From NCBI RefSeq assembly GCF_038871235.1, contig NZ_JAVZIN010000001.1:71926-135925 (forward strand): a stretch of DNA of 64,000 nucleotides, in the 5' to 3' direction. This stretch comes from Candidatus Hadarchaeum sp. Its GTDB lineage: Archaea > Hadarchaeota > Hadarchaeia > Hadarchaeales > Hadarchaeaceae. The translations under genes were made by a program, and so were the position numbers. Below the pieces are notes generated by a model, which had not been told where the DNA came from, ran no database searches, and was given only the letters and a program-made list of their open reading frames with translations. Positions 10,316-45,453 of this stretch are shown here, one piece after another (within the stretch, counting starts at the first letter, position 1; each line of letters begins with the position of its first letter).

Positions 10316-10423
10316 TGGTGCGGGGGAGGGGATTTGAACCCCCGAACTCCTTCGAGACCAGCCCCTCAAGCTGGCGCCTTAGGCCGGCTTTTGAGACCAT
10401 TGACCTGGCTAGGCTACCCCCGC
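10316..10423 (-). tRNA. tRNA-Leu (anticodon GAG, class II) with a putative ~20-nt intron in the D-arm region
   Basis: Minus-strand RNA GCGGGGGUAGCCUAGCCAGGUCAAUGG[UCUCAAAAGCCGGCCUAAGG]CGCCAGCUUGAGGGGCUGGUCUCGAAGGAGUUCGGGGGUUCAAAUCCCCUCCCCCGCACCA. After the bracketed segment is removed the 3' portion folds as a perfect class II Leu tRNA (anticodon arm CCAGC/UUGAGGG/GCUGG, variable arm, T-arm, acceptor, encoded CCA). Confidence 0.55.
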
Positions 10424-11612: not shown

Positions 11613-11734
11613 GGTTGGCAGCGAACCGGGCTTCCCTTTGGCTTGCGCACAAAAGTACAACCCGATACGCAGGCGAGCTTGACTTCCGGGATCTGACGAG
11701 ACCGGGTATTTCCTCGCCGCTATGGCCGCCAACC
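11613..11734 (-). rRNA. rrf: 5S ribosomal RNA
   Basis: Minus-strand RNA GGUUGGCGGCCAUAGCGGCGAGGAAAUACCCGGUCUCGUCAGAUCCCGGAAGUCAAGCUCGCCUGCG... is collinear with crenarchaeal 5S (GGUCACAGUGAGCGGG..ACCCGGACUCAUUUCGAACCCGGAAGUUAAGCCGCUCACG). Helix I closes as GGUUGGCGGC/GCUGCCAACC. Confidence 0.7.
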
Positions 11735-11770
11735 GAAATTATTGTTGTCCACTCAGTTTTAAAAGCTTGT

Positions 11771-11907
11771 GTGGTCCCGCGGGGGAGAGTTTCAGCGGCT
11801 TAATCCGCGTTTGAACTCCCGACATTTACCGGAATCCTCTAGATTCTGTCGGTTTCAGCGCGGTTTGGGTCTACAGCCGACCACTCTACCAGGCTGAGTT
11901 ACCGCGG
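11771..11907 (-). tRNA. tRNA-Tyr (GUA) with three introns (37/38, 45/46, 59/60)
   Basis: RNA CCCGCGGUAACUCAGCCUGGUAGAGUGGUCGGCUGUAG[ACCCAAACCGCGCUGAA]ACCGACAG[AAUCUAGAGGAUUCCGGUAAAU]GUCGGGAGUUCAAA[CGCGGAUUAAGCCGCUGAAAC]UCUCCCCCGCGGGACCA. The mature form gives a canonical cloverleaf and the CCA is encoded. Confidence 0.65.
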
Positions 11908-12016
11908 GACCGTTTAAGAATCTGGAATCTCCGTTATTAAGGTTTAACCTCTGCACTTACGAGTCTCATCTTCAGAAAAGATTGGTTTATAAAGTAGTGA
12001 GGAGACCTCATAGACG

Positions 12017-39791: not shown

Positions 39792-39904
39792 TGGTGGGCC
39801 CGGAGGGCTTCGAACCCTCGACCACCCGGTTTCCCCGGTCAACCTATGAGCCTCGCCCAACTTCTTCAGTTGTCGGGCGCTCCACCAGGCTGAGCTACGG
39901 GCCC
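39792..39904 (-). tRNA. tRNA-Met or Ile2 (CAU) with two introns (30/31 and 37/38)
   Basis: RNA GGGCCCGUAGCUCAGCCUGGUGGAGCGCCCG[ACAACUGAAGAAGUUGGGCGAG]GCUCAUA[GGUUGACCGGGGAA]ACCGGGUGGUCGAGGGUUCGAAGCCCUCCGGGCCCACCA. The mature anticodon arm is CCCGG/CUCAUAA/CCGGG. Confidence 0.55.
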
Positions 39905-45301: not shown

Positions 45302-45453
45302 TGGCGCCGGGGAGAGGACTCGAACCTCTGACCGCTCGGTTGCTGTGCCCAGACGTGTCGTCTTTTTTTATTGAGGTTCGTTCTTCATTCACATCCGGTT
45401 TAACAGCCGAGCACTCTACCTACTGAGCTGTCGGGCCGCAACGGAACCCCGGC
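45302..45453 (-). tRNA. tRNA-Asn (GUU) with two introns (near 8/9 and a ~58-nt intron at 37/38)
   Basis: RNA GCCGGGGU[UCCGUUGCGGCCCGAC]AGCUCAGUAGGUAGAGUGCUCGGCUGUUA[~58 nt]ACCGAGCGGUCAGAGGUUCGAGUCCUCUCCCCGGCGCCA. A second copy of the 5' acceptor half (GCCGGGGAAAU) lies immediately upstream at 45458-45464. Confidence 0.55.

Follow-up and report, generated by a model that had tools for sequence, protein, structure and literature searches.

The 64-kb window (the whole stretch of 64,000 nucleotides that was analysed) carries a genuine tRNA-Tyr(GUA) gene interrupted by three introns, one at the canonical position 37/38 and two at the non-canonical positions 43/44 and 59/60. We consider this locus to be very probably a functional gene, which would be transcribed from its own promoter into a 137-nt precursor and matured by EndA cleavage and ligation at three introns of the bulge-helix-bulge (BHB) type. 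The preliminary description had placed the gene at 11771-11907; the length of 137 nt was right and the coordinates were one base off (Table 1). Its reading as tRNA-Tyr(GUA) with one canonical and two non-canonical introns was borne out. Indeed, excision of the three inserts leaves a 77-nt product that ARAGORN calls tRNA-Tyr(gta), and the minimum-energy fold of this product (-31.5 kcal/mol) is a cloverleaf with all stems intact. The product features C1-G72, A73, U8, G15/C48, G18G19, U54U55C56 and A58, and C1-G72 together with A73 constitute the archaeal/eukaryal tyrosine identity elements. The interrupted gene itself was not called by ARAGORN in the 64-kb window, with or without intron mode. 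Likewise, the Rfam tRNA model did not report the gene at the gathering score, nor at E<=1. A split or permuted tRNA gene was ruled out, as the four exons follow one another in order on a single strand, within 137 nt. Upstream, a TATA-like element within AAACCTTAATAA is located 26-32 nt from the 5' end of the gene, at an equal distance in L125, L126 and L127, and its TTAATAA motif is the putative promoter of tRNA-Tyr.

Table 1. Coordinates of the tRNA-Tyr gene, its parts and neighbours, and the other interrupted tRNA genes of the window
Feature	Position in window	Strand	Description
tRNA-Tyr(GUA) gene	11908..11772	minus	137 nt; ends CCCGCGG and CCGCGGG-A-CCA, read from sequence
Exon 1	11871..11908	minus	Acceptor 5' strand, D-arm, anticodon stem 5' strand, loop to G37 (CCCGCGG...CUGUAG)
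Intron 1	11854..11870	minus	17 nt, ACCCAAACCGCGCUGAA; canonical 37/38, anticodon loop
Exon 2	11848..11853	minus	A38-C43 (ACCGAC), anticodon stem 3' strand
Intron 2	11826..11847	minus	22 nt, AGAAUCUAGAGGAUUCCGGUAA; non-canonical 43/44, variable region
Exon 3	11810..11825	minus	Variable loop A44-C48 (AUGUC), T-stem 5' strand GGGAG, T-loop U54-A59
Intron 3	11789..11809	minus	21 nt, CGCGGAUUAAGCCGCUGAAAC; non-canonical 59/60, T-loop
Exon 4	11772..11788	minus	U60, T-stem 3' strand CUCCC, acceptor 3' strand CCGCGGG, A73, encoded CCA
Putative archaeal TATA box	11934..11940	minus	TTAATAA within AAACCTTAATAA, read from sequence
5S rRNA gene	11613..11733	minus	Directly downstream of tRNA-Tyr; Rfam RF00001, 93.6 bits
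tRNA-Leu(GAG)	10316-10423	minus	Class II; one 22-nt D-loop intron
tRNA-Met(CAU)	39792-39904	minus	22 nt at ~30/31 (anticodon stem), 14 nt at 37/38
tRNA-Asn(GUU)	45302-45453	minus	16 nt at 8/9 (BHB central helix 4/4), 60 nt at 37/38

The same gene is found, identical, in three assemblies of the same species. Syntenic loci were located via the neighbouring MBL-fold protein. In L125, L126, L127 and L130, where this protein is 55-71% identical (tblastn), all three introns are kept and the exons are identical to those of the window gene apart from D-loop variation, while the introns diverge. The synteny with the 5S rRNA gene is also kept in L125-L127. In L128, the T-loop intron is absent and the T-loop reads UUCAAAU. 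No tRNA-Tyr adjoins the MBL gene in P0018 (L131) or P0002 (L132), and in P0004 (L124) the locus is truncated at the start of the gene. A metagenome scan, using a pattern that runs from the anticodon through the start of intron 1, added 41 further loci, and the orthologue set comprises 27 distinct full genes plus L153, which is truncated at a contig end. A second pattern, from the D-arm to the anticodon, was too general (at least 120 tRNA-Tyr matches in many archaeal phyla) and served as a comparison set only; no close relative was present among the matches listed for it.

Apart from D-loop variation, exon 1 is invariant in the 27 distinct orthologues. Introns 2 and 3 are found in each of the four possible combinations of presence and absence, at the predicted junctions: introns 1, 2 and 3 together in 5 distinct genes, introns 1 and 2 in 9, introns 1 and 3 in 6 (truncated L153 included), and intron 1 only in 8. 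Only the syntenic Hadarchaeum-like group, characterised by a 5S rRNA at least 86% identical to that of the window and by a 17-nt intron 1, has the three-intron form; in lineages further removed, intron 1 is 12 nt long and is accompanied by no more than one extra intron. This distribution fits an accumulation of introns in the Hadarchaeum-like clade, and loss elsewhere is also compatible with it.

We searched for the junctions by scanning all cut-site pairs in the gene for a BHB with 3-nt bulges and a 4-bp central helix, cut after the second bulge nucleotide, a register supported by the published location of the first two anticodon bases in the central helix (PMC4090602). This unbiased scan ranked the 59/60 intron first and the 43/44 intron second. 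Shuffled introns equalled the observed helices in 0 of 20000 cases for intron 2, 3 of 20000 for intron 3 and 4064 of 20000 for intron 1, the motif of which is, taken alone, no better than chance. Shifting the junctions gave far worse BHB scores in each instance, whether by -3 to +1 in the T-loop (compared with 59/60), by -1 or +1 in the anticodon loop (compared with 37/38), or to 44/45 or 45/46 for intron 2 (compared with 43/44). The BHB folding for which the preliminary description proposed to check each junction is strict at 59/60 and relaxed at 43/44 and 37/38, being statistically weak at the last of these. A C/D-box guide RNA encoded in an intron, as in the tRNA-Trp of H. volcanii, was rejected on length alone, since introns of only 17-22 nt are too short for such a guide.

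The 21-nt T-loop insert had been assigned to 59/60 from the outset, and this position holds. Intron 3 forms a strict hBHBh' motif: the outer helix is the 5-bp T-stem, the central helix has all 4 pairs (U54-A57 with UGAA), the bulges are AA|C and AC|U, and the inner helix of 4 bp carries a 6-nt loop. The motif forms in the minimum-energy fold. Moreover, in the ten variants available, 98.4% of the cells of this BHB are paired, against 35-60% in slid controls; five pairs show compensatory changes, and none of 500 shuffles reached the observed values. In the orthologues that have no intron 3 the T-loop reads UUCAAAU, the very product expected of splicing at 59/60, and the junction is therefore fixed there.

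For intron 1, both the length of 17 nt and the 37/38 position given earlier were confirmed. Its motif is a bulge-helix-loop, with the 5-bp anticodon stem as the outer helix and a 3' bulge AA|A. There is no inner helix, and the 5' cut site is therefore in the loop (a 13-nt terminal loop). The central helix has three pairs out of four, C32:G, G34:C and U35:G, interrupted by a U33xU mismatch. One could imagine that only the 43/44 and 59/60 inserts are classical EndA substrates, the 37/38 insert being processed differently or inefficiently, for example last or with a cofactor. The bulge-helix-loop form, the U33 mismatch and the failure to outscore shuffles speak in this direction, and the motif is predicted neither in the precursor nor in the intermediate left once introns 2 and 3 are removed, its probability in the thermodynamic ensemble being zero, with intron 1 paired to the D-arm instead. 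In addition, Kaneta et al. (PMC5829648) limit alpha4 and alpha'2 enzymes to strict BHB motifs unless they bear a specificity loop. We nevertheless regard this alternative as improbable. The 37/38 insert is present in 27 of 27 distinct orthologues (12-17 nt, with a variable interior), and in every one the pairing of its six 3' nucleotides with nt 32-35 is maintained, through one-sided compatible changes by which U35:G becomes U35:A and the U33 mismatch becomes, in some genes, U:G or U:A. Furthermore, bulge-helix-loop introns at 37/38 are, according to the same study, an established substrate class of broad-specificity EndAs (PMC5829648). The folding parameters hold for 37 C and ignore tertiary structure, and the organism belongs to a hot-spring lineage; the thermodynamic failure to form the motif is thus a caveat and not a refutation.

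We also noted how intron 1 behaves in the minimum-energy fold of the precursor. Its 3' part (GCUGA) pairs with UCAGC of the D-arm (window 11854-11897, minus strand, gene positions 12-55), and further bases of the intron are paired with D-loop and anticodon-stem bases, in a fold whose stability exceeds that of the cloverleaf-like conformers by 13 kcal/mol. In distant relatives, the 12-nt variants of intron 1 have no such complementarity.

The inserts might also have accumulated in a decaying tRNA-Tyr pseudogene, a separate intact gene supplying the tRNA. The locus is not recognised by standard tRNA finders, as such a scenario would have it, and our check for a second copy was confined to 64 kb of the genome. 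However, a pseudogene is highly improbable in view of the orthologues: the exons are invariant among relatives whose introns diverge and which share only 55-72% identity in the neighbouring proteins, the BHB helices are maintained by compensatory changes, and the promoter-like element and the 5S rRNA synteny are conserved. In addition, half of the other tRNA genes of the window are interrupted in like manner. A pseudogene was rejected on the features of the gene as well, with its invariant exons, stems that are intact after splicing and a conserved TATA-like element upstream.

The central helix of intron 2 is complete (A38:U, C39:G, C40:G and G41:C), nt 38-41 pairing with the CGGU 3' end of the intron. 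The 5' bulge is AC|A, the 3' bulge is AA|A, and a 6-bp inner hairpin has the loop AGA. The outer helix consists of only 1 bp, at the 3' cut site, and the whole fits a relaxed hBH-type motif. Intron 2 is absent from 13 distinct complete orthologues (14 with the truncated L153), and these genes read CCGAC-AUGUC-GGGAG, or have AUGUU or ACGCC as the variable loop, with AGGUC in none; the junction is therefore fixed at 43/44. A junction at 44/45 would lead to the same spliced product. Across the orthologues, 88.8% of the cells of this BHB are paired, against 11-55% in slid controls. Covariation is modest: A:U is replaced by G:C in three sequences, and 39 of 500 shuffles reached the observed score. 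The hairpin loops vary in length and sequence, and the variants that are too divergent for alignment (L128/L155, L146/L148 and L152/L166) keep the same geometry, the inner hairpin starting exactly two nucleotides past C43 in 14 of 14 intron-2 variants. The preliminary description had the 22-nt length right and put this intron at 45/46, which would make the mature variable loop AGGUC, a register that has next to no chance of being correct and that is, judging from the orthologues, already refuted: it too gives a 77-nt sequence called tRNA-Tyr by ARAGORN, and AGGUC-like variable loops exist in other archaeal tRNA-Tyr genes among the matches listed, but it forms only 2 of 4 central pairs and neither outer nor inner helix, this place reads A-U/C-G-U/C-C/U in all 13 complete orthologues that share the exons and have no intron 2, and the constant start of the inner hairpin counts against it.

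We propose the following maturation pathway for the gene. A TATA-type promoter of its own would drive synthesis of the 137-nt precursor, which EndA would cut at six sites, after the second nucleotide of each 3-nt bulge. An RtcB-type ligase would then join the four exons into the 77-nt tRNA, for which AUGUC is predicted as the variable loop and UUCAAAU as the T-loop. The T-stem would be the base on which the 59/60 intron forms its BHB, a textbook case of the strict type. At 43/44, the pairing of CGGU with nt 38-41 would open the anticodon stem, the stem that the 37/38 intron would use as its outer helix. In the minimum-energy fold of the precursor, the BHBs of introns 2 and 3 form together, and the intron-1 and intron-2 conformers, both of which use nt 38-41, are approximately isoenergetic (-41.1 vs -40.3 kcal/mol). 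Because these four nucleotides are shared by the intron-2 helix and the anticodon stem, the 37/38 and 43/44 motifs are mutually exclusive. As a consequence, the precursor would have to refold between cuts, implying ordered or alternating splicing. The simplest order would be removal of introns 2 and 3 first and of intron 1 afterwards.

Two of the three junction pairs are relaxed, one by its weak outer helix and the other as a bulge-helix-loop, and the enzyme would therefore need a broad specificity. The relaxed-specificity endonuclease suggested by the preliminary description is thus supported, in agreement with a study in which relaxed motifs require an endonuclease with a specificity loop (PMC5829648). 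There, an EndA of the homotetramer (alpha4) type with an L3 loop is reported for Hadesarchaea archaeon YNP_N21, of the same lineage as the host of the window (Kaneta et al. 2018, NAR 46:1958, PMC5829648), and the enzyme acting here may be of this type. No EndA homologue was found among the 186 window ORFs (phmmer, with M. jannaschii EndA, verified against PDB 1A79, as the query), and none of the 105 EndA homologues from a large protein search was labelled Hadarchaeum or Hadarchaeota. Kaneta et al. also described a marked disruption of tRNA genes in Hadesarchaea, given in the main text as proportions and with no individual genes. Disruption of tRNA genes is thus already published for the lineage at the summary level; the three-intron tRNA-Tyr, its junctions, the presence/absence series and the conformer conflict do not appear in that text. 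In the literature searched, we found no account of this tRNA-Tyr gene, its junctions or its intron polymorphism, and positions 43/44 and 59/60 are not explicitly listed in two reviews (PMC4090602, PMC4033280).

The host was identified by its proteins. Four window proteins, including the neighbouring MBL-fold protein, are identical to proteins of several Candidatus Hadarchaeum sp. MAGs (NCBI), and more distant homologues are labelled Hadarchaeaceae; the lineage is thus phylum Hadarchaeota, kingdom Methanobacteriati. Within the archaeal tree, Hadarchaeota belong to the euryarchaeal side. Work by Sugahara et al. in 2007/2008 and by Fujishima et al. in 2010 reportedly dealt with tRNA genes of Thermoproteales that have multiple introns. 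For that order, the occurrence of several introns in one tRNA is established, with three as the published maximum (PMC4033280). The gene described here resembles those of Pyrobaculum, Thermofilum and Caldivirga in having three BHB-type introns, at canonical and non-canonical positions, with strict and relaxed motifs, in a genome segment where a large share of tRNA genes is interrupted. It differs from them in its host, Thermoproteales belonging to the Thermoproteota, and in the enzyme, which is reported for the Hadarchaeum lineage (PMC5829648) as alpha4 with an L3 loop and not as (alpha-beta)2 with the crenarchaeal loop. The attribution to a Thermoproteales-type archaeon in the preliminary description must therefore be abandoned and, given a three-intron gene in a Hadarchaeota host, multi-intron tRNAs are not a signature of Thermoproteales.

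Other known systems offer partial parallels. Canonical 37/38 introns, as in the tRNA-Trp of Haloferax volcanii and the Methanocaldococcus jannaschii substrates, share with intron 1 its position, the anticodon stem as the outer helix, and the pairing of nt 32-35 with the 3' end of the intron (geometry according to PMC4090602), whereas intron 1 has no inner helix and a conserved U33 mismatch. Among the matches listed for the D-arm-to-anticodon pattern, tRNA-Tyr genes of Nitrososphaeraceae (L109, L111, L113, L102, L099 and others) are ~160 nt long and have a long insert in the anticodon loop and a second one inside the T-arm (GCAGGCTCAA...ATCCTGC), making up another two-intron tRNA-Tyr family outside Thermoproteales. 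These genes are like the window gene in combining a canonical-site insert with a T-arm insert; unlike it, they have much longer inserts, another T-arm junction and no variable-region insert, and they belong to another phylum.

The preliminary description also mentioned other intron-containing tRNAs and suspected a genome-wide trait, which holds within the window: 4 of its 8 tRNA genes, for Leu(GAG), Met(CAU) and Asn(GUU) besides Tyr, are interrupted, by a total of eight introns, five of them at non-canonical positions. ARAGORN found the four uninterrupted tRNAs. In intron mode it miscalled tRNA-Leu(GAG) as an intron-containing tRNA-Trp(cca); once the intron is removed under BHB guidance, the call is tRNA-Leu(gag). 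The same mode modelled tRNA-Met(CAU) with a single 21-nt intron; the ~30/31 intron of this gene has a good BHB, with 31/32 as an alternative register. As for tRNA-Asn(GUU), it was missed by ARAGORN, and Rfam aligned model positions 9-63 only. A second copy of its acceptor 5' strand, GCCGGGG, is located 11 nt upstream of this gene (GTGCCGGGGAAATGCCGGGG). On inspection by eye only, the eight introns showed no sequence similarity to one another that would suggest transposition.

These observations bear on the annotation of related genomes. Neither ARAGORN nor the Rfam tRNA model detects the only recognisable tRNA-Tyr gene in the region, and two further tRNA genes of the window are miscalled or partly detected. 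Since standard finders miss interrupted tRNAs, Hadarchaeota genomes will seem short of essential tRNAs unless a BHB-aware search is applied. The three-intron maximum is reached outside Thermoproteales, here shown gene by gene, and the 27 orthologues, with every combination of the two non-canonical introns, provide material for studying intron gain and loss as well as the substrate range of L3-loop alpha4 endonucleases. We advance tentatively, as a serious possibility towards which we do not quite lean, that Hadarchaeota arrived independently at the three-intron maximum, with recurrent gain and loss at 43/44 and 59/60 and with programmed refolding or an obligatory splicing order. If this were true, the changes at 43/44 and 59/60 among near-identical tRNA-Tyr genes would be a natural series on the origin of BHB introns, and the 43/44 intron would be presented to the enzyme only by unfolding the anticodon stem that the 37/38 intron requires.

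Some further variation was seen at the locus. The T-stem is either GGGAG/CUCCC or GCCGG/CCGGC in otherwise identical orthologues (L128, L136, L137, L144, L152, L159, L166 and L172, compared with the window), that is, four compensated differences at once. Genes with the GCCGG stem mostly, though not always, have no T-loop intron; L159 has both. Four simultaneous compensated differences are suggestive of recombination rather than stepwise mutation, and from these sequences the switch may reflect replacement of the gene's 3' portion.

Two MAGs of the same species (GCA_038872675.1 and GCA_038873675.1) have an IS6/IS240-family insertion sequence 2 nt past the CCA of tRNA-Tyr (L002:9617-10634, and also L001 from 12344), the breakpoint corresponding to window position 11770. 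The element is bounded by perfect 21-bp terminal inverted repeats (GGCTTTGTTTCAAAGTCGGGA) and encodes a DDE transposase (PF13610, E=1e-11). The window lacks the DNA on the far side of the element and carries the 5S rRNA gene there; the breakpoint reflects either a rearrangement at the strain level or a join made by the assembly at a repeat. Finally, a conserved CTTTTAAAA element is found between tRNA-Tyr and 5S rRNA (window 11750-11765, minus strand), ~24-31 nt upstream of the 5S start and likewise placed in L125-L127; it could be an oligo-T terminator for tRNA-Tyr and also the TATA box of the 5S gene.
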